This document shows, piece after piece, positions 15,427 to 62,521 of a stretch of 64,000 bases of DNA. Where the stretch lies: IMG/VR virus record IMGVR_UViG_3300021963_000032. One strand, written 5' to 3'. Origin of the DNA: a virus (lineage: Duplodnaviria; Heunggongvirae; Uroviricota; Caudoviricetes). A program made the translations under genes and the position numbers. The notes beneath the pieces were generated by a model that made no database searches, was not told where the DNA came from, and saw only the letters and a program-made list of their open reading frames with translations. Within the stretch, counting starts at the first letter, position 1; the number at the start of each line of letters is the position of its first letter.

Positions 15427-15432
15427 CAACAT

Positions 15433-15684: not shown

Positions 15685-15689
15685 CAGAG

Positions 15690-15763
15690 GGTCCTTTAGC
15701 TCAGTTGGTTAGAGCAGCTCGCTCATAACGAGAAGGTCCCAGGTTCGAATCCTGGATGGACCA
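15690..15763 (+). tRNA. tRNA-Met/Ile2 family (CAT), copy 3
   Basis: GCTCAGTTGGTTAGAGC D-arm, anticodon loop CTCATAA, T-arm CCAGGTTCGAATCCTGG. Confidence 0.6.
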
Positions 15764-15772
15764 CACAAAAAG

Positions 15773-17075: not shown

Positions 17076-17179
17076 AGTCAGGTGGCGGAATGGTAGACGC
17101 TCAGGGTGATAATTAAGTAGTTCGGATTATAAATACAACCTCGATGGACTACATGTAGGTTCGAATCCTGCCCTGACTA
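17076..17179 (+). tRNA. Non-canonical 104-nt tRNA-like element, Leu-like D-arm, possibly intron- or insert-containing
   Basis: The acceptor AGTCAGG/CCTGACT is identical to the element at 14592. D-arm GCGGAATGGTAGACGC, T-arm GTAGGTTCGAATCCTGC, with about 30 extra nt internally. Confidence 0.35.
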
Positions 17180-21220: not shown

Positions 21221-22456
21221 ATGATAAAACTAAAGAACATACTAAACGAAGTACTCGAAGAAGGAGTATATGATCCAGGAATCCTAAAATGCGTATTCCT
21301 AGCAGGTGGGCCTGGATCAGGTAAAACAACAGCAGCAAATCAATTACTTGGAGTAAGCTTTGATAGCTTTTCTGAGGCTGGACTAAAACCAGTTAATAGT
21401 GACAAATTCTTTGAGTTCATCTTAAAGTCTCGTAACCTACCAACTGACCTAGCATCTCTTTCTCCTGAGGACTTTGAGAAGATTACTGTAGGTGCAGACT
21501 CTCCTAGAGAGAAAGCAAAGGGAATGTTGAAGACATCTTATACATACTACGTTGGTGGTCGTTTAGGTCTTATCATTGATGGTACTGGAGATGATCCAAA
21601 CAAAACAAGACAACAAGCAGAGGAATTGCAGAAAGTGTTTGGCTACGATGTAGCTATGGTGTTTGTTAACACATCACTAGAAAAAGCGATTGATAGAAAT
21701 AACAATCGAGAAAGAAAGCTACCTGCTGATCTTGTAACTAAGATCTGGAATGAAGCACAGAAAGCAAAGGAAGTACATAAGCGCTTCTTTGGTAACAACT
21801 TCTACGAAGTACTTAACGAGAAGGATAGTGCACCAGGACAGCCATTAGATATCAACCCACAAGTACAAAAGTTAGTACGTTCGTTCATACAAAAGCCAGT
21901 TCAGAACCCAGTAGGTAAAGAGTGGATCAAGAAAGCACTTGCTGCAAAGTCTTCTATGAGTGAAGCAGAAAATCCTCAGTATGAGATATTCTGTGATATG
22001 GATGGAGTGCTTTGTGATTTTGTTAAGCAGTGGAAGAAATACTTCAAAGGAGAAGCTCCTGACGATATGAGACATCGAATTGGTAAACCAGAGTTTGATG
22101 AGTACCTAGATTCTATGGACAGAAAGTTTTGGAATACTATGGAGTGGATGCCAGGAATGCAAAGAGTGTGGAATGTTATTAGCAACTATGGTGCAGGTGC
22201 TAAAATACTTAGTGCCCCTGCCGAGAACCCAGACTCACCTGCAGGTAAGTTGGATTGGGTAAAGAAGAATCTTTCAAATCCAGAAGTGATCTTCCGCAAG
22301 TCAACACAAAAGCAAGAGTTCTCAGGACCTAACAAGATCCTTATTGATGACCTCAAAAGAAATATTGATCAGTGGAGAGCTAGAGGAGGAATTGGAATAC
22401 ACCACATCAGCGTGGAGAAGACACTAAAAGAACTAAGTGATTTAGGAATAAAATAA
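21221..22456 (+). CDS. Fusion of a P-loop (d)NMP kinase-like domain and a HAD 5'(3')-deoxyribonucleotidase-like domain
   Basis: N-terminal FLAGGPGSGKTT Walker A. C-terminal FCDMDGVLCDF HAD motif I (compare DMDGVLADF of NT5C-type enzymes). Confidence 0.5.
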   Translation: MIKLKNILNEVLEEGVYDPGILKCVFLAGGPGSGKTTAANQLLGVSFDSFSEAGLKPVNSDKFFEFILKSRNLPTDLASLSPEDFEKITVGADSPREKAKGMLKTSYTYYVGGRLGLIIDGTGDDPNKTRQQAEELQKVFGYDVAMVFVNTSLEKAIDRNNNRERKLPADLVTKIWNEAQKAKEVHKRFFGNNFYEVLNEKDSAPGQPLDINPQVQKLVRSFIQKPVQNPVGKEWIKKALAAKSSMSEAENPQYEIFCDMDGVLCDFVKQWKKYFKGEAPDDMRHRIGKPEFDEYLDSMDRKFWNTMEWMPGMQRVWNVISNYGAGAKILSAPAENPDSPAGKLDWVKKNLSNPEVIFRKSTQKQEFSGPNKILIDDLKRNIDQWRARGGIGIHHISVEKTLKELSDLGIK

Positions 22457-42069: not shown

Positions 42070-42080
42070 GATTGAGAGAT

Positions 42081-44309
42081 ATGAATAATACACAGACACA
42101 GACTTATCAAGAATTGCTTCGCAAGGCGCTGGGCAAGAAGAACACTAACACTGCCGCGCGTAAGTTAGATGTCAAGAAGAACTATGCTAGCTTCTGGATG
42201 GATGACTTAGGAAAGGGTAACGATCGCTTTGGTCTTGGTAGTGACTTCTCTGGGAAGAGTAGTGACATCGTCAAGGCTATCAAGTTGAACTCTTACCGTA
42301 AGGCGATTGCAAACTTCGTTAAGATCCTTACTAACAAAGAGATCCCCGTGAGGTTTGCTGGTAGTGATTCTTACACAGATGGTAAGAGTGTTACTATCTC
42401 TTCTGATATTAAGGACAATAACTTTGATGTCTCTGTGGGATTGGCCTTGCACGAGGCTTCTCACATTTTGTTGACTGACTTCTCTGTCCTTCCCGCACTA
42501 CGTGATGGGAAGATTGAAGCAGCTAAAGACTTGGACGGAAGGTTGGTTAAAGACCTTTTGAACTTCATTGAAGATAGACGTATTGACCACTATGTGTTTA
42601 GTACTTCTCCTGGGTACAAAGCTTACTACCACAAGTTGTATGAGCACTACTGGAACAATGACAAGACGGTTATCAAAGGCCTTTTGTCTGCTAAGTTCAG
42701 AGATGCTAAGAAGCTTGACAGTTGGATGTTCCAGATCATCAACATGATGAATCCCGCATTTGATGCGACTGTTATGCCTCGCTTGCAGGAGATCGTTACC
42801 TTGATTGGAATACCGACTATCAGTCGTTTGAAGTCTACACAAGACGCTCTTGACATTGCCATCCAGGTTGCACAGATCATCACAGACGAGATGCGCCAAG
42901 CGATCGAAGATGCAGCTAGCCAACCGGAGCCAGAACAAGGGCCAGGTCAGCCTAGTCCGGATGCAGACGGTGAAGCAGGAGAGGATCAAGAGTCCGGCAG
43001 TGAAAGTGATGATTCAAGTGAAAGTGATGATGGAAGTGAAAGTGATGATGGAAGTGAAAGTGATGATTCAAGTGAAGAAGGTCAGGGATCTAGTGAGGGT
43101 GAAGAAGGGGAAGACGGAGACGGAGAAGCTTCTACCGGTGGTACTGATCTGACTCCAGAAGAAGAGGCTGCTATCGAGAAGGTGCTTAGAGAGCAACGTA
43201 AGTTCATGGACGGAGAGAGCGGGAAGAAGCAGGCAGGTAGAAACCTCGAAAGAAAGTTAGATAAGACTGAGAAAGAGGGAGTTACGATCGAGCAAGTAGG
43301 TGGCAAGTATACTTGTCTTAACTACGATGTTACCGGTAAGGAGTTCGTTGCCGCAGCTGATGCGAAGGATAAGATACAAGAAGCTAGAAACAATGTGTAC
43401 AAGGAAGCATACGGATCACCAGCGAAGAAGGCAGCAGAAGCAGCATTAGCTGAGCTCCGCACTACTAGTGAGTTATTAAGTAATGACTACTTCAGCAGTC
43501 CTAGTGCACGATATGCTAAGGCAATCGACAAGGGAATATTGATGGGACAGTTGCTTGGTAAGAAGCTACAGATGCGTAACGAGTCACGTGAGAGAATCGA
43601 TAACAGACTGAGAAGCGGGAAGATAGACAACAGACGTCTAGCAGCTGCAGGGTACGGAATCGAGAGCATCTTCCACCAGGTGACAATAGACAAGTACAAG
43701 AAAGCTAACCTACACATGAGCTTAGATGGCTCAGGCAGTATGGGAGGAACCAACTGGGAGAACACAGCCATGATGGCAGCAGCAATTGCTAAAGCTCTTA
43801 CCTTCACATCAAACGTGGCAATGCAGATATCAATCAGGGTAACAACTAACGATAGCGGAACCCTTCCTGCTAACTACTTCATCTACGATTCTCGCAAGAA
43901 TACACTAAGAGAGCTACAGGTGATACTAAAGGCATTCAATCCTAACGGGATGACACCAGAAGGTTTGTGCTTCGAGAGTATGCTTAAGAAGAACCAACTA
44001 GTGAAGTCTAGCGCAGACATGGATAGCTACTTCGTTAACCTTTCCGACGGAGGACCTGGAGGAGTAGGACAGTACGGAGGATCAGTTGCAACGGAGCATA
44101 CAAGAGCACAAGTTACTAAGATGCGTAACGAGCTAGGTATGGGAGTATTAAGCTACTTCATGACACAGTACGGAGGTACAGACTTCGCTAGCAGTGGTAG
44201 CGGTAGAGCTTTCCAGGCCATGTACGGAAAGGCAGCTACCAACATTGCACCGGACAACGTAATGGAGATTGCTAAGACACTTAACAATTTATTTATGAAC
44301 AAGGGATAA
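42081..44309 (+). CDS. CobT-like von Willebrand factor A domain protein with an acidic Ser/Asp/Glu repeat
   Basis: MIDAS-like HMSLDGSGSMGG. Internal (SESDDG/SESDDS)x4 and EGEEGEDGDGEA acidic tract. Partner CobS-like ATPase lies at 48707. Confidence 0.5.
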   Translation: MNNTQTQTYQELLRKALGKKNTNTAARKLDVKKNYASFWMDDLGKGNDRFGLGSDFSGKSSDIVKAIKLNSYRKAIANFVKILTNKEIPVRFAGSDSYTDGKSVTISSDIKDNNFDVSVGLALHEASHILLTDFSVLPALRDGKIEAAKDLDGRLVKDLLNFIEDRRIDHYVFSTSPGYKAYYHKLYEHYWNNDKTVIKGLLSAKFRDAKKLDSWMFQIINMMNPAFDATVMPRLQEIVTLIGIPTISRLKSTQDALDIAIQVAQIITDEMRQAIEDAASQPEPEQGPGQPSPDADGEAGEDQESGSESDDSSESDDGSESDDGSESDDSSEEGQGSSEGEEGEDGDGEASTGGTDLTPEEEAAIEKVLREQRKFMDGESGKKQAGRNLERKLDKTEKEGVTIEQVGGKYTCLNYDVTGKEFVAAADAKDKIQEARNNVYKEAYGSPAKKAAEAALAELRTTSELLSNDYFSSPSARYAKAIDKGILMGQLLGKKLQMRNESRERIDNRLRSGKIDNRRLAAAGYGIESIFHQVTIDKYKKANLHMSLDGSGSMGGTNWENTAMMAAAIAKALTFTSNVAMQISIRVTTNDSGTLPANYFIYDSRKNTLRELQVILKAFNPNGMTPEGLCFESMLKKNQLVKSSADMDSYFVNLSDGGPGGVGQYGGSVATEHTRAQVTKMRNELGMGVLSYFMTQYGGTDFASSGSGRAFQAMYGKAATNIAPDNVMEIAKTLNNLFMNKG

Positions 44310-44772
44310 AAAGTTATGAACCGGTAGCTTTAGAGGGGGTATGCCTAGAGGAGACTAGAGGGGTATCCCCCCCTATATAAGACGCGATCTAGCGAGGGGG
44401 ATGCCCCCATGAAAGACGGTGATATAGCAGGGGGATATCCCCTTAAAAACACGCTTAAAACACCGTAAAACACCCCCTATAATTACGTGAAAACCGAATG
44501 GATATCGCCCTATATTGGGGAGGTTACATGCGTTCACATTTCGATGCCAATTTTTTTGCTATAGCAACATTGACACTTCGATTACACTGCGTGTAATGTA
44601 TATGTTAAATCCTCCCTTCCCTCTTGGGAAGGTCAGGCCCATCCCCATGGGGAGCCTCGAGGTTAAAAGTGGCACCCCTTGTTCATAACTTATTCCAAAA
44701 CCGAGCATATTTATACAAGTAAACCGGAGGTAAAAAATAAAAAATTTAGTATATTTCCCCTATAAAACACAC

Positions 44773-45009
44773 ATGGATATTTCGAGAAAAACACTAATGA
44801 AACGCGCGGGCTTGCTTGAAGAAGAGCAACGAATTAAGCAGGTAAGAATGACACAACAAATGTGGGATAAACTGCCATTTGACACGCGTGCAAACATGCT
44901 GTTATCAGCTGTTAAAGATCCGGATGATATCGAGCAGTATGTTGATATGGATTGGAACAATCTACCGGCTGAAGTTACACAAAACATGGTGGTATACATT
45001 AAAGCATAA
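44773..45009 (+). CDS. hypothetical protein
   Basis: ORF. Confidence 0.35.
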   Translation: MDISRKTLMKRAGLLEEEQRIKQVRMTQQMWDKLPFDTRANMLLSAVKDPDDIEQYVDMDWNNLPAEVTQNMVVYIKA

Positions 45010-45011
45010 CG

Positions 45012-45332
45012 ATGATCAAATTTAAACAAATATTGCAAGAAAAGGAGCTCAATCCGTACTCACAGTCGGTAGGTTCATTTGCGGCAAATTACGTGGGCTT
45101 CCAGGTATCAATCAGTAACGGGGACCTAGTGGAAGGTGGCGAGATTAGCGGCGATTTTCTAGTGGTTGGATACGGTAGATTAATTGAAAACACAACCGGT
45201 GATTTCAATGCAAGAACTAACCCATCTAGCGAGGTATTAATCGTGCAAGATGCGGATGGAGTTGGCTCAGGACTACACTCTATATTCTGTAGTGTTATGG
45301 AGCTACAATCTAAGGTAAAAGTAAAACAATAA
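45012..45332 (+). CDS. hypothetical protein (N-terminal MIKFKQILQE motif family)
   Basis: ORF. The N-terminus is shared with the genes at 53582, 21221, 54253, 54639 and 55178. Confidence 0.4.
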   Translation: MIKFKQILQEKELNPYSQSVGSFAANYVGFQVSISNGDLVEGGEISGDFLVVGYGRLIENTTGDFNARTNPSSEVLIVQDADGVGSGLHSIFCSVMELQSKVKVKQ

Positions 45333-45339
45333 CACACAT

Positions 45340-45648
45340 ATGAAAGACAATATTTCAAAACAAAGACTGCAGGAACTAGCAGCAATCAACAACCCGTTTC
45401 TAGTGGCAGAAGCAGTGGACGCTAACGCCATGATCAAACTAGAAGTGATGGTAAAAGCAGGTACATTAATCGATATGTTCGGGGGAGCAGAAACGCTAGC
45501 AGACACTGTAAACGACCCTAACAAATTCAGAGATTTTACACGTACAATCCAGGACGATCTAGGAGAATGGTTAGCAGGACCAGGCGGAGACGAGTGGGCT
45601 AACGACGGCGTAGAATCTGGAAATTATGACGATTATATTCCTTTCTAA
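45340..45648 (+). CDS. hypothetical protein (N-terminal SKQRLQELA motif)
   Basis: ORF. The N-terminus resembles that of the gene at 46554. Confidence 0.4.
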   Translation: MKDNISKQRLQELAAINNPFLVAEAVDANAMIKLEVMVKAGTLIDMFGGAETLADTVNDPNKFRDFTRTIQDDLGEWLAGPGGDEWANDGVESGNYDDYIPF

Positions 45649-45661
45649 ATAACACACAAAC

Positions 45662-46147
45662 ATGAAACTAAGTAACGTAAAAGCAATCATCCAACAAGAG
45701 GTGAAAAAAGTACTCAAAGAAGCGGTAGATCCGGACAACTGGCCTATCGGGTACTTTGAGGTTAAAGACACGTTTGAAATCACACCCGGTGGTGGTTGGG
45801 GCGTTAGATTTAACAAAGGCCAAATCGTACAAGTAGCACAATCTAAAGTCGATCGAAGCTTACAAACAATCACAACTTGGGATGCCCTTAAAAACGAGTG
45901 GGTAGTGAAAGCTCCACCTATTAGCGGGTACAAAGATAACGGCGGAATGTTCCCTATTTCAAGCTTTGGAGGGTCGCGTGCTTGGACTGCTAAGTTTGCT
46001 CAAAACACTACTCCTCTATCTAAAGGTGCGGCTGAATCCAAAGCGAAATCAATGGCAGCTGAGACGACATTAAGCGCTAGAGATGCGGTTAAAATGCTCA
46101 ACACATTGAAGCCAAATCAAATGGTTAAAATCACGATTGTTAAGTAA
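45662..46147 (+). CDS. hypothetical protein (N-terminal MKxSxxxAIIxxEVxxVLKEA family)
   Basis: ORF. The N-terminus is shared with the genes at 46153, 47308 and 47525. Confidence 0.4.
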   Translation: MKLSNVKAIIQQEVKKVLKEAVDPDNWPIGYFEVKDTFEITPGGGWGVRFNKGQIVQVAQSKVDRSLQTITTWDALKNEWVVKAPPISGYKDNGGMFPISSFGGSRAWTAKFAQNTTPLSKGAAESKAKSMAAETTLSARDAVKMLNTLKPNQMVKITIVK

Positions 46148-46152
46148 TCAAG

Positions 46153-46428
46153 ATGAAGAAATCACAACTACAAGCAATCATCAAAGAAGAGGTTAGAGGC
46201 GTGCTTAAAGAGGCTTCATTCTTCGATAACATGAACGACGAAACCAAAGCACTTTATCGCGAATATGCACAAAAGATTGATATCTTGGATCGCACCGCGA
46301 TCTACAATCACGACCTTTTGAATAAGGCGCTTATGGCTGATCCTCGTGTTCAAAAGAGCGCTCAAAAGAATACATTGCAAAAGGCATTAGCATGGGCAAT
46401 TACGTTTGCTCAAGAGATGGAAAGATAA
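46153..46428 (+). CDS. hypothetical protein (same N-terminal motif family)
   Basis: MKKSQLQAIIKEEVRGVLKEA. Confidence 0.4.
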   Translation: MKKSQLQAIIKEEVRGVLKEASFFDNMNDETKALYREYAQKIDILDRTAIYNHDLLNKALMADPRVQKSAQKNTLQKALAWAITFAQEMER

Positions 46429-46553
46429 TCCTAACCTGCTGAAAGCAGCGACAAATAAGTAAGGAGGGAAGGCCAAAAATATGCGGGAACTGGTGCGAAA
46501 AAATGCGCCGGTTCTTGTTTGTTTATGCGGGACTATTTATATAAAAGTTAACT

Positions 46554-46775
46554 ATGAAACACGAGACATCTAAGCAGAGATTAATGGAGTTGGCTAACGT
46601 CAGTGAAGCTATGGAAACCCCATCTGCTGCGGCGTCTGAGATACTATCTTTGCTTGCACATCCGAACATAAAGAAGAGTATGGATGCTCTTTCAGATATG
46701 ATCGGTGACCAGGAGTTTATGGCTGTTAAGAAGCTGTACGATGGTTTGTATATGGAGCTTAAAAAGTACGAATAA
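46554..46775 (+). CDS. hypothetical protein
   Basis: ORF with SKQRLMELA motif. Confidence 0.35.
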   Translation: MKHETSKQRLMELANVSEAMETPSAAASEILSLLAHPNIKKSMDALSDMIGDQEFMAVKKLYDGLYMELKKYE

Positions 46776-47302
46776 TGTTTAAGTATATACGGGACATCTT
46801 GACGACAATTACACCAGGACAGCGGATCGTTGCTTTGGCTTTTTTGTTGATGAGTATTACCGTAATTGCTGTGGGACCTAAGATTGTAGGTAGCTTTACT
46901 CAAGACACTGAGGAGTTGCAGATTAAGGTGGAATCGCAGAAGAATGAGATTGCTGATCTTACCCAGCGAGTTGGTGATTTGAATCGTCAAGTCATTACTA
47001 ACCAAACAGAGTGTACTAACCAGTGGATGTCCCGAGAGCGTGAGATTCTTGGTGTTATCAATTTGATAGAGCAAGAGGCGTTGTCTACAAACGGAAGAAT
47101 AGTGGCTACTAGTTCAACAGTCGTTCGCAGACCTAACACTTATAACTACGATAACGATACAATGCAAAGAGTGTCTATGATGGTTGTAGCACCAGAACCA
47201 GAAGTGGTGAAAACCGTTACGCATAAAGTTGATAACAGAAAGATGCTCGGTATGGTGTCAAAGCTGAAGGGTGAAATACAAAAGGACTTAGGCAAACAAT
47301 AA
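46775..47302 (+). CDS. hypothetical membrane / coiled-coil protein
   Basis: TM helix LAFLLMSITVIAV followed by a coiled coil. Confidence 0.4.
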   Translation: MFKYIRDILTTITPGQRIVALAFLLMSITVIAVGPKIVGSFTQDTEELQIKVESQKNEIADLTQRVGDLNRQVITNQTECTNQWMSREREILGVINLIEQEALSTNGRIVATSSTVVRRPNTYNYDNDTMQRVSMMVVAPEPEVVKTVTHKVDNRKMLGMVSKLKGEIQKDLGKQ

Positions 47303-47307
47303 ATTAT

Positions 47308-47523
47308 ATGAAGAAATCAGAATTACAAAAGATAATCCGTGAGGAAGTAAAAACAGCTCTAGGTGAGCAAGTTAATCCCGAGTTGGATGCTATGGTGAAG
47401 AAATTCGTTAAGGGTCTAGCTGCCAAGTATCAGTACGGAGAGCAGGACGCTCTTTATGCTATATTCGAATCATTGAAGCGCCAGCAAATGCTAGGTAACG
47501 ACGTAAATTACAGACCATACTAA
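47308..47523 (+). CDS. hypothetical protein (N-terminal motif family)
   Basis: MKKSELQKIIREEVKTALGEQ. Confidence 0.4.
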   Translation: MKKSELQKIIREEVKTALGEQVNPELDAMVKKFVKGLAAKYQYGEQDALYAIFESLKRQQMLGNDVNYRPY

Positions 47524-47524
47524 C

Positions 47525-48244
47525 ATGAAGAAATCACAACTAAAATCACTTATACGAGAGGCTGTTTCGTCTCGATTGGCAGAAGCTCAAGACTTTATGG
47601 CTCAGCTGAAAACTTCTGGTAAATTGGTAGATCCAACTGGTGTTGGTAGTTCTCCTAGATACTCTGAAACGTATCAACTAACGGGAGATACTAAGCATGA
47701 TTCTATGCGATTCTTCTACAAGCCTACCGACAAGAATAAGCCGTACGGTCTTGTATATATTCAAGGTCATGGATTAGATAGTCGTGTAATGTCATCTGTT
47801 GGATTAGGTTATCACACGCAGTCAGGAATCGCTGGTGTTGATGGCTATATTCACGATGGTAATTATAATACAAGTTGGGTATCTGAGCAAGACTTTATCA
47901 AAGCTGTAACAGATTTTAGCAATGGATTTGGTAAGTATGCTAAGTCGTATAACGACTTCTACAAGGGTAGAGGTTTGTCTCCAGGAGTTGGTGATATGAT
48001 GCAAGAAGGTGTTATGTCAGACATCGACATCATCGCACAAGAGTCAGCTACATTTGAGGAGTTTGTTAGCAAAATTGCTGCAGATCCAAAATATAAAAGC
48101 TTAGATGCAAATGACGCTGAAGTGAAGGATTTCTTGCAACAAATGTACGATGATGCACAAGTTGTAAGTGAAACAAAACACGTTAAAAAACTATCAATCA
48201 AAGAAGCAATTCGAAGTATCATTCGCAAAGAATTAAGAAAATAA
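47525..48244 (+). CDS. hypothetical protein (N-terminal motif family)
   Basis: MKKSQLKSLIREAVSSRLAEAQ. Confidence 0.4.
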   Translation: MKKSQLKSLIREAVSSRLAEAQDFMAQLKTSGKLVDPTGVGSSPRYSETYQLTGDTKHDSMRFFYKPTDKNKPYGLVYIQGHGLDSRVMSSVGLGYHTQSGIAGVDGYIHDGNYNTSWVSEQDFIKAVTDFSNGFGKYAKSYNDFYKGRGLSPGVGDMMQEGVMSDIDIIAQESATFEEFVSKIAADPKYKSLDANDAEVKDFLQQMYDDAQVVSETKHVKKLSIKEAIRSIIRKELRK

Positions 48245-48254
48245 ACCACATCTA

Positions 48255-48292
48255 CTATTGCTCTAAGAAACCACCCCACAAAGGTGGTTTTT
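48255..48292 (+). terminator. Rho-independent terminator
   Basis: AAACCACCccacaaaGGTGGTTT followed by TTTTTGTTT. Confidence 0.6.
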
Positions 48293-48337
48293 TTGTTTGT
48301 ATCGGTTCATAACTTTTAAATTATTTTTGTTTAGCTG

Positions 48338-48376
48338 TTGCATATCCGGATTGATCGGGTGTCCTTTAGGTATAGA
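48338..48376 (+). promoter_or_regulatory. Conserved phage promoter with upstream ATCGGTTCATAACTTT element
   Basis: TTGCA-N22-CTTTAGGTATAGATAAAAAGAGAAAGAT upstream of the ATG at 48392. Confidence 0.55.
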
Positions 48377-48391
48377 TAAAAAGAGAAAGAT

Positions 48392-48622
48392 ATGAAAAAT
48401 TCAATTTTAGACAAGAACGGAGCAGAGCTTCAAGTTGGTACAGTAGTAAGTCACAAGACCGGGTGGGTACGAATCACACGATTGAACAGTAAGTGGTGTA
48501 ACCTTGGTGCAATCTGGGGTGGTAGGGTTTATGAGAAGAAAGTTCCTCTTAGTGAGATCTTTGCCGACGAAGTTGCTTGGTATGAGGCTTGGACTAAAAC
48601 AGATCAGTACAGATGCATGTAA
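48392..48622 (+). CDS. hypothetical protein
   Basis: ORF. Confidence 0.4.
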   Translation: MKNSILDKNGAELQVGTVVSHKTGWVRITRLNSKWCNLGAIWGGRVYEKKVPLSEIFADEVAWYEAWTKTDQYRCM

Positions 48623-48650
48623 AAAAAATGAAAAAAAATTGCACTAACTG

Positions 48651-48696
48651 TTGCAAACACGGAAAACAGTCCTGACCTTTAGGTATAGATTTAAAG
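48651..48696 (+). promoter_or_regulatory. Conserved phage promoter
   Basis: TTGCAAACACGG...CCTGACCTTTAGGTATAGATTTAAAGAGAGAT upstream of the ATG at 48707. Confidence 0.55.
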
Positions 48697-48706
48697 AGAG
48701 ATAAAA

Positions 48707-49924
48707 ATGATTATTAAAAACACAAAAACACAAGTTATGAGTAAATTTCCAATGATTGCCGAAGTAAAGATGGCCCCTGGCAAAGGCGGTAAGATGGTTG
48801 TTAAAGCCTTCGATTCAGTTTCCGGAGAGGAAGTGAAAGGTATTGTTTATGTAACGCTTCAAGGAGCTTACAAAGCTGGTATGAACCTTGCTAAGATGAG
48901 TGAAGATTCTTCTTTCACTCGAGTTGATTCTACTGTCTCTGTTGAGATGTTAGAGCAGATTATTAGTGGTGCTGAGGTTTCAGTTCCGGAGGTTGCTCCT
49001 GCTACTAATGACGTTATGTCTTTCTTAAAGACTTGTGTTGAGAAACGTCCAGAGACACTCTACATTGAGGACCTTAACTGGAAGTTTATGTGTCGTACTG
49101 CGATGCGTGGAGGTAATATGTTGATGACTGGTCCTACCGGATGTGGTAAGTCTCAGACAGCCATTGCGGTTGCTAAGGCTCTTGGACGTGAGTTGTTCTA
49201 TGTTAACTTAGGTGCTACTCAAGATCCTCGAGGAACATTGATTGGTAACACTCACTTCTCTAAAGAGGTTGGTACTTTCTTTAACGAGTCTGCTTTCGTA
49301 AAAGCCATTCAGACTCCTAACACAGTGATCTTGCTTGATGAGATTTCTCGTGCGCATCCTGAGGCTTGGAATATCTTGATGACGGTTCTCGATCCAGGAC
49401 AGAGATACTTGAGATTGGATGAGGCTGTTGGAGCTCCTACAGTACACGTTGCAGAGGGAGTAGCGTTCATCGGAACTGCTAACATTGGTAGTGAGTATAC
49501 TGCCACAAGAGTAATGGACCGAGCGTTGTTAGACCGATTCACTATCGCTGAGATTCCTTACTTAACTGTAGCTCAGGAGTCTAAGTTGCTGACTCAGTTA
49601 CACCCAGGATTGTCTAAGAAAGTTTGTCAGAACATCGCTGAGATTGCTGGTCAGACTCGTACAGAGGTTATGACAGATAGTCCACGAATCTCTAGTGCGA
49701 TTTCGACTCGTGCAGCGATTGAGATGGCCGGGTTAATGTCTGACGGATTCGCAATCGAAGAGACAGCTCAAGTAAGTATCTACCCACTGTACTCTAACGA
49801 CGGAGGTATGCAGTCTGAGAGAACTTATGTGAAGCAGTTGGTTCAGAAGTACATCAACGATGGAACTGCTGATAACTTGACGGGTGCTGAAAGTGCTGAG
49901 GTTGAATCAAACTTACCTTTCTAA
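48707..49924 (+). CDS. CobS-like / MoxR-family AAA+ ATPase
   Basis: Walker A LMTGPTGCGKSQ. Walker B ILLDEISRAHPEAWNILMTVLD. Confidence 0.55.
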   Translation: MIIKNTKTQVMSKFPMIAEVKMAPGKGGKMVVKAFDSVSGEEVKGIVYVTLQGAYKAGMNLAKMSEDSSFTRVDSTVSVEMLEQIISGAEVSVPEVAPATNDVMSFLKTCVEKRPETLYIEDLNWKFMCRTAMRGGNMLMTGPTGCGKSQTAIAVAKALGRELFYVNLGATQDPRGTLIGNTHFSKEVGTFFNESAFVKAIQTPNTVILLDEISRAHPEAWNILMTVLDPGQRYLRLDEAVGAPTVHVAEGVAFIGTANIGSEYTATRVMDRALLDRFTIAEIPYLTVAQESKLLTQLHPGLSKKVCQNIAEIAGQTRTEVMTDSPRISSAISTRAAIEMAGLMSDGFAIEETAQVSIYPLYSNDGGMQSERTYVKQLVQKYINDGTADNLTGAESAEVESNLPF

Positions 49925-49926
49925 TC

Positions 49927-50229
49927 ATGAGAGGTAACACTAACCCAGACAAAGAGTTCATGAGAATGAAGCGCTATGTCGACAAGAAGTTTCCTGGAGC
50001 ACATACGGTTGCTAGAGAGAGAAACGGACAAATGACTTATCAGGTTTTGGATGGAAGAGGCTTTGCTGTTATTAGTGAAGAGCTGTTTCTTCCACCGGCC
50101 TTCACTGTGAGAAAAGCTTGGGAACAAGCCAAGTATGCAGCTTGGTTTTCGAACATGATTCGCAAGTCAAATGCAGCGTTTTCAGACGAGAAAATGTACA
50201 AAAAGATGGCCAGAGAAACTGGTGAATAA
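49927..50229 (+). CDS. hypothetical protein
   Basis: ORF. Confidence 0.35.
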   Translation: MRGNTNPDKEFMRMKRYVDKKFPGAHTVARERNGQMTYQVLDGRGFAVISEELFLPPAFTVRKAWEQAKYAAWFSNMIRKSNAAFSDEKMYKKMARETGE

Positions 50230-50248
50230 TGACCAAAAAACAACAAAA

Positions 50249-50770
50249 ATGAGCATAGTAAGATTTATAGCAGACCTCCATTTAGGACACGAAAACATGG
50301 CTAAAAAACGCGGATTTACTTCCGCAGCTGAGCATGATGAACATATCATAAAGATGTGGAATAGTGTGGTAAATAAGCGCGATATGACCTACATTTTAGG
50401 TGACGTGACTATGGAGACCAGTAAGTACTATCCGCTCTTAGATCGCTTGAATGGCCGTAAGAAAGTCGTGCTTGGAAACCACGATATGCCAAAGGATATT
50501 CCGGAGCTTTTGAAGCATGTAGACCAGGTTGGTGCAATGATGCGATATAAGGGCATTTGGATGTCTCACTGTCCGGTTCATCCAATGGAATTGGAACACC
50601 GCGTAAAGCGGATCATTCACGGTCATATCCACGAAAAGTTCGTTATGAAACAAGTAACGTTTCTAGGTTTTAATGTATTCAAACGTGTTGATAGACGATA
50701 CCACTGCGTGTCTTGTGAGCATGTTAACTACACTCCTAAAACGCTCGCAGAGCTGGGAATAGAAAGATAA
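50249..50770 (+). CDS. Calcineurin-like metallophosphoesterase (Ser/Thr phosphatase-like)
   Basis: IADLHLGHEN...LGDV...GNHD...GHIHE motif series. The start is taken at an internal ATG after the upstream gene. Confidence 0.5.
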   Translation: MSIVRFIADLHLGHENMAKKRGFTSAAEHDEHIIKMWNSVVNKRDMTYILGDVTMETSKYYPLLDRLNGRKKVVLGNHDMPKDIPELLKHVDQVGAMMRYKGIWMSHCPVHPMELEHRVKRIIHGHIHEKFVMKQVTFLGFNVFKRVDRRYHCVSCEHVNYTPKTLAELGIER

Positions 50771-50785
50771 TTCATTACTATTTAT

Positions 50786-51109
50786 ATGCAGATGATAAAG
50801 CTTGGAAGTATTATAAAAGAGATGGGATTACCATCATTTGATCCACCTAACAAATTCCTGAGAGGGGAGATATCCAAGCAAGCATTGATCGATAAAGCAG
50901 CACCATTAGTGCAGCCTCTACCATTCATCGATCAGAACATGCTAGATGCATTAACTTTTACCGCAACAGAGCGTGATGCCAATAAGGTTTGGAAAGCTCT
51001 TACACAAGGTGGATTAGGTGCCTACTTCGATCCTCCTACCCAAAGTGCAGAGCCCGAAATGTGGTTTATCGACACTCGAACTGCAAATGCAGACGGATTG
51101 ATCTTGTAA
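50786..51109 (+). CDS. hypothetical protein
   Basis: ORF. Confidence 0.35.
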   Translation: MQMIKLGSIIKEMGLPSFDPPNKFLRGEISKQALIDKAAPLVQPLPFIDQNMLDALTFTATERDANKVWKALTQGGLGAYFDPPTQSAEPEMWFIDTRTANADGLIL

Positions 51110-51150
51110 TAAGATCGGTTCATAACTTTCTATTTATTTTCTTGCAGCTG

Positions 51151-51196
51151 TTGCATGGCTGGATATATGTCCTGACCTTTAGGTATAGATTTAAAG
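51151..51196 (+). promoter_or_regulatory. Conserved phage promoter with upstream GATCGGTTCATAACTTT element
   Basis: Near-identical to the promoter at 48651, including CCTGACCTTTAGGTATAGATTTAAAGAGAGATAAA. Confidence 0.55.
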
Positions 51197-51226
51197 AGAG
51201 ATAAATTAATTACTAAAACACAAGTT

Positions 51227-52036
51227 ATGAAAACAATCGAATTAACACCTGCCGAATTAGAGTTGATCCAAGTAAAGCGTCAACAAGAGGAATTAGCCGC
51301 TCAAGAAGCTGCTGTTCAAAACCAACTTGCAATCGAGAAAGAAATTGCTCGAGTTAACCTCCAAGTTGAAGGTTATATTAAGCAAGAAGCTCAACAAGTG
51401 AAAGCTGCTGGTGAGTTTGCTTTACAAATGCCATCCGTAGGATTTCATGTTGATACTAGAGATCTCGAAGCTAAAGCCACTTACAAGAGTGAAGTTGTTG
51501 ACACGATCAAGTATCAAGAACAAGTAGCCTACATGCTTAAAGATGGTTATAAGATTTCGGTCAGAGAACACATCGTGTATAGTAGATATGGTGGACGTGG
51601 TAGAAGTCAGGGATATAAGATGTATGTTACCGGTCCTGGTATTGACTACAAGACTTCAAACCGTGGTTACAAAAATACCAAGAAAGTGATCGAATTAATC
51701 GAAGACACAATCGAGTCAATCAAAGCTAAAGAGTTGTTTATTGCAAAACAGAAAGGTGCGGTTGAGTCTACTGTTGCAAAGTTGACACAAGAGTTTCCTA
51801 AAGCTAAGGTGATTTCGAGTCGTGGTTGTAAGATCAATCCTTACGGATCTCCTTCTAACAGATACACTGAGTATGATAAAGTTGAAGTGAAATTGCCTAA
51901 CGGAGTTAACATAGAGTACCGAGTTCATTCAGATGGCTACATGGAACGATTAGGAATTACCTACCCTAAACACGACACAATGGAATTGATTTCAATGTTA
52001 AATAATTTAGAATTTTCTTCCGAAACTGTTGCCTAA
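51227..52036 (+). CDS. hypothetical protein
   Basis: ORF. Confidence 0.4.
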   Translation: MKTIELTPAELELIQVKRQQEELAAQEAAVQNQLAIEKEIARVNLQVEGYIKQEAQQVKAAGEFALQMPSVGFHVDTRDLEAKATYKSEVVDTIKYQEQVAYMLKDGYKISVREHIVYSRYGGRGRSQGYKMYVTGPGIDYKTSNRGYKNTKKVIELIEDTIESIKAKELFIAKQKGAVESTVAKLTQEFPKAKVISSRGCKINPYGSPSNRYTEYDKVEVKLPNGVNIEYRVHSDGYMERLGITYPKHDTMELISMLNNLEFSSETVA

Positions 52037-52067
52037 TCAAATATAAGTCACGACCTTTAGATATAAG
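52029..52067 (+). promoter_or_regulatory. Conserved phage promoter overlapping the 3' end of the upstream gene
   Basis: TTGCC-N22-CTTTAGATATAAGAAAGAGAT upstream of the ATG at 52076. Confidence 0.45.
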
Positions 52068-52075
52068 AAAGAGAT

Positions 52076-52309
52076 ATGAATACTGAACTAAATACCCGAA
52101 CAGACGTTATCAAAGCTTTGGTGGCGGAGTTCAACGAAAAGCCAGCCGGTTTTAACAATAACGAGAGAACCAAGTCAAATGAGAAGTTTTGGACCTTCAA
52201 CCGATTGTTCCATTATTATTGGGATTTGAAACATGGTCGTAAAGGTACTTACCGTACCACCCTCAATCCTGCTACCGGTTTTTATGAACTTAATAAACAA
52301 CAATCATGA
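52076..52309 (+). CDS. hypothetical protein
   Basis: ORF. Confidence 0.35.
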   Translation: MNTELNTRTDVIKALVAEFNEKPAGFNNNERTKSNEKFWTFNRLFHYYWDLKHGRKGTYRTTLNPATGFYELNKQQS

Positions 52310-52530
52310 TAAAGAAGTTGAGTGAAATGCCACGTGCAGAGAAGATTGAAATTGATTTAACTGGTCCTGAGGGCAATGCCCACTACCTAATAGGCCTAGC
52401 TACTAACCTTTGTGATAACTTTGACTTAGATGCTGTTGTTGTTCGTAAAGAGATGATGGCTAGTGATTACGAAAACTTGCTTGAAGTATTTGATAATTAT
52501 TTTGGTGAAATAGTGAATTTATATCGCTAA
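52306..52530 (+). CDS. hypothetical protein
   Basis: ORF with ATGA overlap. Confidence 0.35.
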   Translation: MIKKLSEMPRAEKIEIDLTGPEGNAHYLIGLATNLCDNFDLDAVVVRKEMMASDYENLLEVFDNYFGEIVNLYR

Positions 52531-52534
52531 AAAG

Positions 52535-52572
52535 TTGCACCGGTGGAATTAAGTCACGACCTTTAGGTATAA
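52535..52572 (+). promoter_or_regulatory. Conserved phage promoter
   Basis: TTGCA-N22-CTTTAGGTATAAAAGAAAGAGAGAT upstream of the ATG at 52586. Confidence 0.5.
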
Positions 52573-52585
52573 AAGAAAGAGAGAT

Positions 52586-52780
52586 ATGAAAACAATCGCA
52601 AACAAGACCCAAAAGACATTTGAAGCTGCCATCAGAATGGTCATGATTAGAGAAGGTAAGAGTTTCCAAGAAGCTCAAAATATCGTACTAGAGGTTGTAA
52701 ACGACTTTAAGTCAGACAACGTGACTAAGAATGACCTAGTAGATTTGATTAACACACTACATTACACATTTATAAAATAA
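52586..52780 (+). CDS. hypothetical protein
   Basis: ORF. Confidence 0.35.
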   Translation: MKTIANKTQKTFEAAIRMVMIREGKSFQEAQNIVLEVVNDFKSDNVTKNDLVDLINTLHYTFIK

Positions 52781-52785
52781 GAGAT

Positions 52786-53085
52786 ATGAATAATTCAGTA
52801 AAACAAATCGAGAAGTATTTAAACCTAACGGTACTAGCTTCAGAAAGTAAGATTCAAAGAGAGGTGTTTGGTTATAATAGAACCGAATCGTTTGAGTCAA
52901 ATAAGAAATATGCTGACATGCTTCGTCGAGGATGGTATAAGGATTTATATAAACGAGTAGAGGTTTCTGTACCAGGAGTTCGTTCAAGAATATTCTATTA
53001 CAAAGGAAGTGTAAACGAAATGCAAACCTTACTTGCAAATCGAGGAGAAACTGTTGAGTCATTTATTTTAAAAAACGAGCTATGA
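52786..53085 (+). CDS. hypothetical protein
   Basis: ORF. Confidence 0.35.
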   Translation: MNNSVKQIEKYLNLTVLASESKIQREVFGYNRTESFESNKKYADMLRRGWYKDLYKRVEVSVPGVRSRIFYYKGSVNEMQTLLANRGETVESFILKNEL

Positions 53086-53306
53086 GTAATGAAATGATTG
53101 GTAATTTTGTCTATTTGTATTTTATAATTAGTACAATGGCGTTGTTGAGATGGGGAGCTGAGATCCTCGATAATATTCAAAAGAAACGTGAGAATGGCAA
53201 AGAAGAAACAAAAGGATAGTACACCTGCTTACAACGAGGTCAACAAGAAGATCGCAGCTAGGTTAGAAAAGTTTAATAAAGAAAAAAACACACAAAAATA
53301 AAAGTT

Positions 53307-53519
53307 ATGTCAAAAGAAAAAAACGCATCGAGTGGAATTGGTTTAGGAACTGTGTTGTTCTTGATATTTTTAACATTGAAATTAGCTGAGGTTGGTCCAG
53401 TTCAGTACTGGTCTTGGTGGGCTGTAACGTGTCCTCTTTGGATTCCACTATTGCTTGTGGTAGGAATTGCAGCGATTGTTGGCCTTGTAGTTTTAATAGG
53501 TCGCGCATTGAATAAGTAG
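53307..53519 (+). CDS. small membrane protein (2 TM)
   Basis: LGTVLFLIFLTL and IPLLLVVGIAAIVGLVVLI hydrophobic segments. Confidence 0.4.
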   Translation: MSKEKNASSGIGLGTVLFLIFLTLKLAEVGPVQYWSWWAVTCPLWIPLLLVVGIAAIVGLVVLIGRALNK

Positions 53520-53539
53520 GTTTATCTCTCTTCCTACTA

Positions 53540-53578
53540 TTTATATGAAAGGTTCTTGAACGAGAGCCTTTCTTTTTA
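53540..53578 (+). terminator. Rho-independent terminator
   Basis: AAAGGTTCttgaacGAGAGCCTTT followed by CTTTTTAT. Confidence 0.5.
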
Positions 53579-53581
53579 TAT

Positions 53582-54256
53582 ATGATAAAATTCAAAAACA
53601 TATTACAAGAGCTTAGTGGTGAGGAAACTTCCCGCGAGCAGTTTGTGTTAGGAGCTTCTCGAGATATTGTGAACGCTTTTAAGTCTGGTGTTCGTAAATA
53701 CAAAGACACGTTTATATTACCACGTGGTGGTGAGGAAGCTGAAGTCAATTTAGATATCACATTTATAAAGAGACCAAAGCAGGAGTATGCTTTCTCAATA
53801 GCTGCAGGGTTTGGTCCTAAGAAAAGAGGTGATGAAGATGCATTGGAGATGTTGGTTGAGTACAATCCAAAATGGTTTCCTAACGCAATGAACGCTTTTG
53901 TAGCCGAAGTGAAAGAGACTTTAGAACATGAATTGGAGCACGTTGGTCAACAAAACTTTGACGATATGTATGTCGTGTCTAATAGGTACGACCAGCCTCT
54001 AGCATACCCAGAAGAGTCACCACAAGCACCAACCCACTTCCTTTATCTTACCAGTAATGTGGAAGTTCCAGCCTACGTTAAGGGATTACTAAAGCGAGCT
54101 AAAGTGAAGGGATTATCCTTCGAAGAAGCCCTAGAAGACTACTACAGCGACTACGTTGATACCTTTAGAGTTTATAGTACAGATTGGAGTAAAGTGAAAA
54201 AAATATGGACAGATTGGGCCTTAGCAAATAGAGATAAACTTAGAAAGTTCACATGA
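53582..54256 (+). CDS. hypothetical protein (MIKFKNILQE N-terminal family)
   Basis: ORF. Confidence 0.4.
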   Translation: MIKFKNILQELSGEETSREQFVLGASRDIVNAFKSGVRKYKDTFILPRGGEEAEVNLDITFIKRPKQEYAFSIAAGFGPKKRGDEDALEMLVEYNPKWFPNAMNAFVAEVKETLEHELEHVGQQNFDDMYVVSNRYDQPLAYPEESPQAPTHFLYLTSNVEVPAYVKGLLKRAKVKGLSFEEALEDYYSDYVDTFRVYSTDWSKVKKIWTDWALANRDKLRKFT

Positions 54257-54642
54257 TTAAACTATACGATTTACTAATAGAAACTGTAACACAATCACAA
54301 CTTGCACTACTTGAAAAGTATGCGGATAAGTTGTTTGCAGTCGTTGGGATTGATGTTGAATTTTCTAAACACTTCTTCGATCGAGTAAATGATCCCCGCA
54401 ATAATAGGCCGATCTCAGATGCTGAGTTGACTGATCTATTTCAGAAAACCTACGAGAAACACGGTAAGCAAATAGCTTCTTTGGGTGCAAGTGCTGAGGC
54501 GGTTATTGTCGATATGCAGAAGGATATTAATATTCCATTTGTGTTGCAATACAACAATAGAACGCAGCAATTAGAACTTATGTCTAAGACAATAATGCGC
54601 AAGAAAAACTTCCAAACAACCAACAAAAAATTAACTGTATGA
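54253..54642 (+). CDS. hypothetical protein (MIKLYDLLIE N-terminal family)
   Basis: ORF with ATGA overlap. Confidence 0.4.
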   Translation: MIKLYDLLIETVTQSQLALLEKYADKLFAVVGIDVEFSKHFFDRVNDPRNNRPISDAELTDLFQKTYEKHGKQIASLGASAEAVIVDMQKDINIPFVLQYNNRTQQLELMSKTIMRKKNFQTTNKKLTV

Positions 54643-55181
54643 TCAAACTAAAATCACTTATTCCAGAAGCTTATACGGATGAGTTTGGTAAAAATAAATG
54701 GGTCAATCTTCCACGCAAAGCCCTTGAGGATTACGCTGATACTATTGCTGATCTTGTAGTGAATGCTTATGCAGGTAAGGGGGGTAATTTTGAGATACGG
54801 ACCGGTAACGATGTACGCTCATCTGATCTGAATTTCTGGGTATCTAACGATGTAGACTCAGATGAGGATATGGATGTTGTGGTAGGAGGAAAGGTAACTC
54901 CAGCAGGGACAAAGATGACAATGATAGGTCAGGATGGTGGTGCTACTGCTAAAAAAGTAGGAGTAACTAAGATGATTGAGCTTATGAAGACGAGAGGTTT
55001 TTATGCTGAAATGGATAAGGATATGGCTGCTAAATTTGGTTTGCCAATCACAAAAGATGAAGCTGATATTCGTAAAGTTATTAATAAGGATCTTAAAATG
55101 AATCCCGATGGTAGCTATGATAGAAAGCTTACTGGCGGTCCAGTTAAAACAAAAGTATTAGTAGGGATTCCAAAGGTATGA
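54639..55181 (+). CDS. hypothetical protein (MIKLKSLIPE N-terminal family)
   Basis: ORF with ATGA overlap. Confidence 0.4.
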   Translation: MIKLKSLIPEAYTDEFGKNKWVNLPRKALEDYADTIADLVVNAYAGKGGNFEIRTGNDVRSSDLNFWVSNDVDSDEDMDVVVGGKVTPAGTKMTMIGQDGGATAKKVGVTKMIELMKTRGFYAEMDKDMAAKFGLPITKDEADIRKVINKDLKMNPDGSYDRKLTGGPVKTKVLVGIPKV

Positions 55182-55597
55182 TAAAGCTAAAACACATATT
55201 AGTAGAAGCAAAAACAAATTGTCCAATTGCAACGCAGGATATTCATGTTAATTTGAAAAACCGTCAACACGGAATTGATGAATATCACTATGGACCAGCC
55301 AATCCAGAGAAGCCAGGTAATTATTGGAAGGATGCGGCTAAGCGATGGAAGACTGATGAATCTACTGCTAAAACAATGCTGTGTGCTAATTGTGCTGCAT
55401 TTGACGTTTCAGACAAGATGTACGATTGTATGACAAAAGGCATTGAGGGTGATGAAGAAAACATAGATGCATTAGCTACAATCGAAAAAGGTGATTTAGG
55501 TTATTGTAATTTTCTTCACTTCAAGTGTGCAGGTTCAAGAAGCTGTGCAGCATGGGTAACTGGCGGATCACTAGATGATAAGGATTTAACCAAATAA
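55178..55597 (+). CDS. hypothetical protein (MIKLKHILVE N-terminal family)
   Basis: ORF with ATGA overlap. Confidence 0.4.
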   Translation: MIKLKHILVEAKTNCPIATQDIHVNLKNRQHGIDEYHYGPANPEKPGNYWKDAAKRWKTDESTAKTMLCANCAAFDVSDKMYDCMTKGIEGDEENIDALATIEKGDLGYCNFLHFKCAGSRSCAAWVTGGSLDDKDLTK

Positions 55598-62105: not shown

Positions 62106-62485
62106 GGGGCTGCTTTGGCTTTGACAAGCAGACGCGTTCTTTGAGATGATGCAAGCAGGGTTAGATGGAAACCCTTAAACACCTATCACAACATAAATGC
62201 AAACGTAGAACTTTCTACATGGACCTTCGAAGATGTTATGGCATTCGTAGGTGGTGAATTAGCAGTAGCTGCATAGTCGCTCCCGTATCACTCATGGGAC
62301 ATTAAATAGAAGTGAACGAAAGAGTACATCTCGCTGACTCATTAAATAAGAGTGGGGAACATTGGTCCGATTGACGATGTTGAAGAACTGATCGGTATTT
62401 TGTCTAGTTAGAAAACGAGACTAAGCTTGTGAACGAGTCTGTTTGAATATCTGTTTGGACGAGGGTTCGACCCCCTCCAGCTCCA
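62106..62485 (+). ncRNA. ssrA: tmRNA (SsrA)
   Basis: 5' GGGGCTG...GACAAGCAGACGCG and 3' GGACGAGGGTTCGACCCCCTCCAGCTCCA form a tRNA-like acceptor and T-arm. The internal tag ORF ...GCATTCGTAGGTGGTGAATTAGCAGTAGCTGCATAG encodes ...AFVGGELAVAA* ending in the typical LAxAA. Confidence 0.6.
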
Positions 62486-62521
62486 CTATCTCTCGTGTCG
62501 AAAGGCACAACTTGTGTGTTA

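Follow-up and report, generated by a model that had tools for sequence, protein, structure and literature searches.

Interchangeable N-terminal leader peptides on unrelated proteins of an immuto-like phage as candidate prohead-targeting propeptides

Fourteen open reading frames (ORFs) in a 64,000-nucleotide stretch of a Caudoviricetes genome (IMG/VR virus record IMGVR_UViG_3300021963_000032; the whole stretch is referred to below as the window) begin with one of three short conserved peptides, termed leader A (seven members), leader B (four) and leader C (three), and all fourteen lie on the plus strand (Table 1). These leaders are strictly N-terminal, are interchangeable on orthologous cargo and are embedded in the T4-type head modules of related phages. 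Their most probable role, as judged from sequence, is that of propeptides targeting proteins to the prohead core, functionally equivalent to the capsid-targeting sequence (CTS) of phage T4. The loading of varied proteins by means of a CTS is already established in T4-like phages (PMC3012670; PMC9026906); what is new is a multi-leader version, which the leader system would represent in the abundant and mostly uncultured clade of phages related to Flavobacterium phage immuto. An earlier reading of the same DNA (the original prediction) had proposed a capsid-targeting or propeptide role by analogy with T4 internal proteins and phiKZ inner-body proteins. The likeness to T4 internal proteins can now be extended to the anatomy of the leaders, the head modules of relatives, leader swaps and a promoter-like motif, while that to phiKZ is weaker because the leaders are short and of the L/I-x-E type rather than long propeptides ending in S/A-x-E.

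Leader families and the level of their conservation

The shared sequence ends 10-21 residues into each protein, giving leaders of 10-21 residues that finish in L/I/V-x-E. Leader A has the consensus M-I-K-[LF]-K-x-[IL]-[LI]-x-E, with positions 4, 7, 8 and 10 conserved in seven of seven members; leaders B and C are longer than A and both also end in h-x-E, where h is hydrophobic. For the 12 ORFs named in the original prediction, coordinates and N-termini all proved correct against the ORF list and a six-frame regular-expression search. Its count of four for leader B stands, and those of six for A and two for C become seven and three with the addition of 50792 and 44773 (genes are named here by their start coordinate; the mechanical, longest-ORF call of 50792 begins two codons earlier, at 50786, with MQ-). 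The scan with regular expressions and hidden Markov models (HMMs) that it had called for returned the 14 leader ORFs alone from the window. Six-frame matches were confined to leader ORF starts on the plus strand, and the leader HMMs scored the 14 carriers at 11-35 bits, with the best other window ORF at no more than 5.1 bits and no match among 949 minus-strand control ORFs. Across the fetched loci nearly all leader HMM matches fell inside the first 12 residues. Likewise, the generic T4-type pattern M..h..hh.E was found at 7 of 111 ORF N-termini in the window against none of 425 internal Met positions.

Once their first 25 residues were removed, the carriers gave no pairwise BLASTP match at E < 0.2, in keeping with the original claim that the proteins diverge past the leader, and tandem duplication of whole genes is therefore excluded. 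The conservation of the leaders is at the peptide level. Identical residues of leader A use different codons in 58 of 109 cases, with 65 expected from genome codon usage, and those of leader B in 36 of 62, with 38 expected; as synonymous codons are thus randomised, selection acts on the leader peptide. The nucleotide identity of the leaders (0.57-0.66) is not above their amino-acid identity, and the 30 nt upstream of the leader genes are about 30% identical, the level of unrelated DNA. It is highly improbable that the conservation instead reflects a nucleic-acid feature, be it a translation-initiation region adapted to hosts that lack Shine-Dalgarno sites or a recombination cassette. An upstream Shine-Dalgarno sequence is not visible, the leader codons are A/T-rich and T4-like phages do shuffle modules at conserved boundary motifs, the promoter/stem-loop units or PeSLs (PMC4122927), but the codon-usage comparison largely refutes a DNA-level repeat or recombination cassette, which was rejected on that ground, and such a feature would leave a peptide conserved over phages of different host phyla, with hydrophobic residues and Glu at its conserved positions in helical register. 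A Sec, Tat or type IX secretion system signal, which would show a basic n-region with an unbroken hydrophobic core or else a sorting domain at the C-terminus, was also ruled out from a reading of the sequences; the leaders carry charges, are amphipathic and finish in Glu, and the true signal peptides of the window look unlike them (for example 17665, MKHISTILFVLIFATSFGQ).

The anatomy of leader A resembles that of the T4 CTS. The T4 CTS is found on the internal proteins IPI, IPII and IPIII, on Alt and on gp24, and is processed by the prohead protease gp21. For packaging, the first 10 residues of IPIII are enough; within the CTS, targeting depends on residues 4 and 7 and processing on residues 8 and 10, and gp21 cuts after L/I-x-E (PMC9026906). 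The T4 N-termini read for comparison were gp24 MAKINELLRE, Alt MELITELFDE and gp22 MLKEQLIAE, together with IPII MKTYQEFIAE, an annotated propeptide (residues -10 to -1). A second point of reference is GD1 (Paraglaciecola Antarctic GD virus 1), a T4-like phage with 9-10 clustered small genes starting MK[TS]F..[FY]..E (eight by the strict regular expression), in which gp8 (MKSYQEFLVE) and gp10 (MKSFDEYFEL) stand on either side of the prohead protease gene. A literature search on the virion proteomics of GD1 found nothing relevant, and in the searched literature no paper mentioning either MIKLKDIL or MIKLKNIL was found.

Leaders in the head modules of relatives and on orthologous cargo

Phage immuto (MW353176, 160 kb) has matches, at 25-77% identity and in a common gene order, to about 30 proteins encoded by the window and two flanking loci (L005 and L012), and judging from these matches the window phage is a distant, larger relative of immuto. 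The immuto head module comprises genes for TerL, a gp20 portal, a 284-residue protein, a 73-residue leader-B protein, a 360-residue protein, the prohead protease (Pfam Peptidase_S77, E = 9e-35), a 75-residue protein carrying a fourth leader, D, an acidic gp22-like scaffold and the capsid protein (Pfam Gp23, E = 6e-84). From the shared genes and synteny with immuto we infer that the window phage would have a T4-type head module of its own; by blastn, 80 immuto-like head loci showed no overlap with the window or with L001, L004, L005 and L012. These 80 loci were taken from IMG/VR, where immuto-like phages are very abundant with at least 600 capsid-gene matches. Of 41 complete immuto-like head loci, at least 19 have leader B on the small gene lying between the portal and protease genes; leader D is found on small genes beside the protease in nine of the head loci. 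Leader D (M..NFDL[RK]KFL.ENKL) is not found in the window; relatives commonly have it, next to the protease as well as a short way upstream of TerL, and it was seen in L002 and L003 and at immuto 12195-13495 (L010). The classification of L002 and L003 as protease-less podoviruses was rejected on the presence of immuto genes and leader D, and these two loci carry no weight against the model.

Leader A occupies comparable positions. A blind scan of IMG/VR with back-translated MIKLK.IL.E, covering at least 120 loci, gave at least 134 matches, 124 of them at true ORF starts, where they head dozens of unrelated cargos; by a rough estimate chance would give about 20 or fewer in the whole of IMG/VR, and chance matches are not expected at ORF starts. 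Among the 120 loci listed, 47 have T4/immuto-type TerL, head, neck or tail-sheath genes, and among the 46 listed loci with immuto-type markers the leader-A match is on the same strand in 44. Protease, scaffold or both were present in 31 leader-A loci among the matches listed. The S77 protease is followed downstream by at least 22 leader-A ORFs, of which nine have the scaffold on their other side and 13 belong to loci that end before the scaffold is reached; at least five lie between TerL and portal, and at least nine downstream of a 400-residue neck gene, of which five immediately so.

T4 gp23 is cut at FLTE↓AEIGG (↓ marks a known or predicted cut), and the capsid junction of immuto-like phages lies at the corresponding place. 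In these phages the residues that follow leader B in the small head protein copy those that follow the predicted capsid propeptide junction of the same phage. L048, for example, has QIVAE↓ANVNTSGGAGFSAGAGETW in the capsid protein against VIKELDE↓ANVTQVGGSGFTAGAGETY in the small one, and L039 has QIVAE↓ANTTGTGG against EVLQE↓ANVTNVGG. The segment of the small protein, ANVT.VGG.sFt.G.GaqY, co-varies phage by phage with the mature capsid N-terminal arm (L011 8312-8533, which is immuto; L017-L094), and it has the appearance of a copy, by mimicry or partial duplication, of the capsid propeptide junction. The scaffold N-terminus KDLLKQAIAE↓AK parallels T4 gp22 LKEQLIAE↓AQ, and the window leader-B ends VLKE↓A, VLKE↓A, ALGE↓Q and RLAE↓A are of a similar junction type.

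Leader-B, leader-D and many leader-A proteins thus stand beside protease and scaffold at the positions of T4 gp67 and gp68, many carriers are small and acidic, and the small leader-B protein mimics the capsid-protein N-arm. These observations would also suit a reading in which the leaders do target the prohead core but the carriers are assembly or core components like gp67 and gp68, degraded and expelled at maturation. For the window we regard this as fairly unlikely, given that its 14 leader genes are hypervariable between relatives and stand outside any head module, and that the carriers include enzymes, a conserved enzyme-like domain and a Cys-rich protein, the profile of T4 internal proteins and Alt rather than of core scaffolds.

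Leaders are exchanged on orthologous cargo, as is expected of modular tags serving one function. An A/C swap is seen at 45012, whose cargo is 56% identical to L001 1988-2332, a protein with the C-type leader MKLTKKRLMENAGLLQE. An A/D swap is seen at 55178, for which the homologue in L125 has leader D (MDNFNLRKYLAEGKL...CPLPTQNLELN). The cargo domain of 54253, with 566 database homologues, starts at about residue 12 with the conserved I-T-x-x-D-L...EKYADKLF and is preceded in different homologues by MIKLKDILFE, MIKFKEYLLEE, MKKFKEYISEE, MKSFKEYIEE, MILTEKF, MIYNWKEWNSINE or no leader. In immuto the homologue has leader B (MKKSQLRQIIKEAL), an A/B swap, while in GD1 (gp42, MKSFEQYIEE) and the T4-like phage Melnitz it has a T4-type leader. 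On this orthologous cargo there are intermediates between leader A and the canonical MK[TS]F..[FY]I.E leaders, and leader A is the only one of the leaders for which homology to known CTS peptides can be traced through intermediates. The N-terminus of the 21221 kinase varies in a similar A/T4-type manner, being MIKLKNILNEVLE-EGVYDP in the window, MKTFAELQ-EGVYDP in Melnitz and MIPFILK-EGLYDP in HTVC008M. An AlphaFold2 model of 54253 was of mediocre confidence (predicted local distance difference test, pLDDT, 63.6), with residues 1-10 below 50 and outside the domain, which starts at about residue 14 in the model; Foldseek of this model against the PDB gave no match.

That the leaders are docking helices for a cytoplasmic machine, whether GroEL/GroES, a MoxR-type AAA+/VWA pair or a nucleotide-metabolism complex, seems a still less likely explanation. 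A gene for a CobT-like VWA protein (42072-44309, with a long acidic Ser/Asp/Glu-rich insert) and one for a CobS/MoxR-like AAA+ protein (48707-49924) bracket the B/C cluster of the window, the L001 cluster likewise follows just after a VWA gene, chaperonins are encoded just upstream of the window and one carrier is a nucleotide enzyme. However, in L001 the AAA+ gene was not seen in the leader cluster, and a CobS/CobT homologue was neither detected nor annotated in GD1. Cytoplasmic docking would leave unexplained the match to the T4 CTS at positions 4, 7, 8 and 10, the continuum with the GD1 CTS-like peptides, the leader genes between protease and scaffold, the capsid-junction mimicry and the leader swaps. 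For the AAA+ protein the best phage matches, each with an identity of about 47%, are to Microcystis phage Mel-JY01 and to an uncultured phage of 484 kb.

Carrier genes, promoter-like motif and genomic setting

Table 1. Leader-bearing ORFs and promoter-like motif sites of the window (↓ marks the predicted cut)
Coordinates (strand)	Leader or motif	Length (residues)	HMM score	Remarks
21221..22456 (+)	A, MIKLKNILNE	411		P-loop kinase and NT5C 5'-nucleotidase fusion
44773..45009 (+)	divergent C, MDISRKTLMKRAGLLE	78	C, 11.0 bits (residues 4-15)	opens cluster
45012..45332 (+)	A, MIKFKQILQE	106		acidic cargo
45340..45648 (+)	C, MKDNISKQRLQELA	102		
45662..46147 (+)	B, MKLSNVKAIIQQEVKKVLKE↓A	161	B, 27.9 bits	
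46153..46428 (+)	B, MKKSQLQAIIKEEVRGVLKE↓A	91	B, 34.7 bits	
46554..46775 (+)	C, MKHETSKQRLMELA	73		L001 ortholog 63% identical
47308..47523 (+)	B, MKKSELQKIIREEVKTALGE↓Q	71	B, 33.4 bits	
47525..48244 (+)	B, MKKSQLKSLIREAVSSRLAE↓A	239	B, 29.6 bits	
50792..51109 (+)	A, MIKLGSIIKE	105	A, 14.3 bits	
53582..54256 (+)	A, MIKFKNILQE	224		cargo with HELEH motif
54253..54642 (+)	A, MIKLYDLLIE	129		HF.DR.ND.RN domain (phrog_14518/23027)
54639..55181 (+)	A, MIKLKSLIPE	180		
55178..55597 (+)	A, MIKLKHILVE	139		7 Cys
46533..46541 (+)	motif CTATTTATA			12 nt upstream of the 46554 C/B operon
50778..50786 (+)	motif CTATTTATA			directly upstream of 50792 (leader A)
53537..53545 (+)	motif CTATTTATA			ahead of the four-gene leader-A operon (53582); motif and hairpin kept at L001 9953
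6302, 6995, 17644, 56358, 60299 (+)	motif CTATTTATA			remaining window sites (start positions)

Searches of Pfam and PHROGs gave no match for most carriers, the exceptions being 21221 and 54253, and near relatives were not found in INPHARED either by megablast of the region or by tblastn of 53582. In 21221 a P-loop kinase (Zeta_toxin/AAA_33) is joined to an NT5C nucleotidase, bearing out the kinase/nucleotidase fusion of the original prediction; in L107, from IMG/VR, a homologue of the kinase with a leader A (MIKLKDILNEGVYDP) is found 4 kb upstream of the TerL and portal genes. Several carriers have counterparts of different extent in relatives. L001 2734-3483 shares 60% identity with the 45662 cargo and is longer by about 90 residues ahead of the common region, and a single 283-residue protein of L001 (4439) aligns at its N-terminal part with 47308 and at its C-terminus with the C-terminal 80 residues of 47525. 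Homologues of 53582 are found in L001 (67% identity) and as the C-terminal half of 521-residue proteins in L002 and L003. The last 20 or so residues of 47525, KKLSIKEAIRSIIRKELRK, look like leader B by eye and would as such recall the double-ended propeptides of T4 Alt, but they gave no score with the leader-B HMM. L223 has three such counterparts 3 kb upstream of its TerL and portal genes: a homologue of 54639 (MIKLIDILNE; distance approximate), one of 55178 that bears leader A or a near form of it, and one of 55602, the neighbouring gene, which has no leader. The TerL matches of L223 (5141-7929) fall in two separate pieces with an ORF inserted between them, suggesting an intein or a homing-endonuclease insertion.

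The motif CTATTTATA (fuller form CTATTTATA[AT]) has eight matches in the window against 1.04 expected, all on the plus strand, and six of the eight lie 12-45 nt upstream of a start codon. In addition to leader genes it precedes a tail-fibre-like gene at 60318. Its sites in immuto include 43347, 59946, 117561, 120552 and 122434, and there it precedes the portal gene, the 284-residue head gene, a leader-D gene, the tape-measure gene and the lysis cassette. On this distribution CTATTTATA behaves like a late or structural promoter element, and is a candidate for that role in the window phage and the immuto clade. Between the motif and the leader-A operon at 53582 lies a hairpin, AAAGGTTCT...AGAGCCTTT followed by a T-run (53549-53572), which is conserved in L001 at about 9965-9990; the layout of motif and hairpin at 53537-53572 recalls the PeSLs of T4-like phages.

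A gene-free stretch of 460 nt (44310-44772) separates the VWA gene from the first leader gene and contains the GC-rich palindromes GGGGGATATCCCC and GGGGTATCCCCCC as well as three of the four window sites of CCCCTATA, the last of them immediately ahead of where 44773 starts. A promoter or regulatory cluster is a possible role for the stretch, as is an origin. The window also carries 23 tRNA genes (12142-15764, plus strand) and a tmRNA gene (62106-62488, plus strand; Rfam 98.6 bits; tag ANVELSTWTFEDVMAFVGGELAVAA). At 17076-17179 on the plus strand Rfam gave a further match, weak, long and tRNA-like (36 bits, 104 nt), that was not called by ARAGORN. Flanking contigs on the upstream side encode a family A DNA polymerase (PolA), HSP20, GroES, GroEL, a PD-(D/E)XK nuclease and glycosyltransferases, and those on the downstream side tail- or baseplate-like genes. 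As a 160-kb ENA contig adjoins the start of the window, the genome would exceed about 230 kb.

Proposed mechanism and comparison with known systems

In the mechanism that we propose, the tagged proteins would be made late in infection along with the head proteins. The short amphipathic leader would bind the scaffolding core, such that the protein is enclosed as the gp23-type shell assembles, and the gp21-family (S77) prohead protease would then cut after the final Glu of the leader (A ..IL.E↓, B ..VLKE↓A, C ..RL.E↓L). The cut would free the mature protein inside the capsid, to be ejected along with the DNA or to act in assembly.

A number of observations weigh against targeting to the prohead. 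Neither an S77 protease nor a gp22-type scaffold was found within the window or the approximately 10 kb of flanks that were read. The L/I-x-E ending is a low-information motif in helices rich in K, E and L. The mature parts have an isoelectric point (pI) below 7 in 10 of 14 cases (pI 4.1-6.8) and T4 internal proteins are basic, while 21221 is a metabolic enzyme among the carriers. Some homologues of the 54253 domain have no leader (P0116), and in Sinorhizobium phage phiM12 the domain lies within a 602-residue protein annotated only as hypothetical; a gene neighbouring the latter is annotated as a virion structural protein. The operon at 44773-46428 has no CTATTTATA site and 21221 has a variant only. 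Finally, the proximity of leader A to head genes is inflated in that short viral contigs are recognised by hallmark genes, a bias that inflates the proportion and not the positional finding.

A broader proposal, which we put forward tentatively, is that the aquatic immuto-like phages may combine at least four interchangeable prohead-targeting leaders (A-D), with leader B derived from or mimicking the last helix and junction of the capsid propeptide, and so load a fast-evolving injected arsenal that includes the kinase-nucleotidase. Different leaders might set the copy number of the cargo or its location inside the head. Were this proposal true, the injected proteome of thousands of uncultured phages would be readable from sequence.

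Packaged and injected phage proteins are the first to meet host defences, IPI and Alt of T4 being the classic examples, and to our knowledge packaged proteins are not recognisable from sequence outside a few model phages. A short tag would mark candidate packaged proteins in globally abundant, mostly uncultured phages of Bacteroidota type, and lead directly to a listing of candidate anti-defence or takeover effectors. The swaps of leader on identical cargo amount to a natural experiment on the modularity of the tag, and the leaders could serve for putting foreign proteins into the capsids of phages of hosts other than E. coli. They also allow one to ask whether the whole gp21/gp23 head lineage inherited the T4 CTS mechanism from its ancestor.

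Among known systems, encapsulin cargo-loading peptides and the Dar system of phage P1 are alike in that short terminal peptides or ordered interactions load cargo into a shell of the HK97 fold. Encapsulin tags differ in being usually C-terminal and uncleaved and bear no sequence relation to the leaders, and in P1 Dar loading depends on a protein hierarchy, with neither a shared short tag nor a sequence relation. In phiKZ, 201phi2-1 and SPN3US multiple proteins of the head bear an N-terminal propeptide that is cut after Glu by a gp21-related protease, and the SPN3US paralogs gp53 and gp54 have identical N-termini (PMC5694885). Here the likeness is that several proteins of one phage have N-terminal propeptides, putative ones in the window, ending in Glu; the propeptides of those phages are mostly over 100 residues long with an S/A-x-E site and occur largely on paralog families rather than on unrelated cargo. 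By the phiKZ-type criterion of a propeptide of about 100 or more residues ending in S/A/G-x-E, the leaders of the window fall outside the group, with their 10-21 residues and L/I/V-x-E ends.

Closer is GD1, whose CTS-like gp8, gp10 and gp31-gp50 are unannotated as such and resemble the present system in having tagged genes beside the prohead protease and a separate tagged cluster, with one cargo in common with the window (gp42 and 54253); it differs in being a conventional T4-like phage with one leader class and the canonical T4-type tag MK[TS]F..[FY]..E.

T4 itself differs in having MKTYQEFIAE where the window phage has MIKLK.IL.E, one loose leader class against three per genome here (with D also in relatives), and about five carriers against 14 in 64 kb, 10 of the 14 window cargos having a pI below 7. 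The window phage is moreover immuto-like and jumbo, its genome exceeding 230 kb, with a family A DNA polymerase and GroEL/ES, and is not a member of the Straboviridae. Both have an N-terminal peptide of 10 residues that is hydrophobic at positions 4, 7 and 8 and closes with L/I-x-E, Glu being at position 10, and both carry it on unrelated, hypervariable small proteins and on an enzyme, with the genes clustered. The likeness extends to the relatives of the window phage, in which the protease is of the gp21 family, the scaffold gp22-like and the capsid protein gp23, and to T4-like phages in which orthologous cargo bears canonical T4-type leaders.

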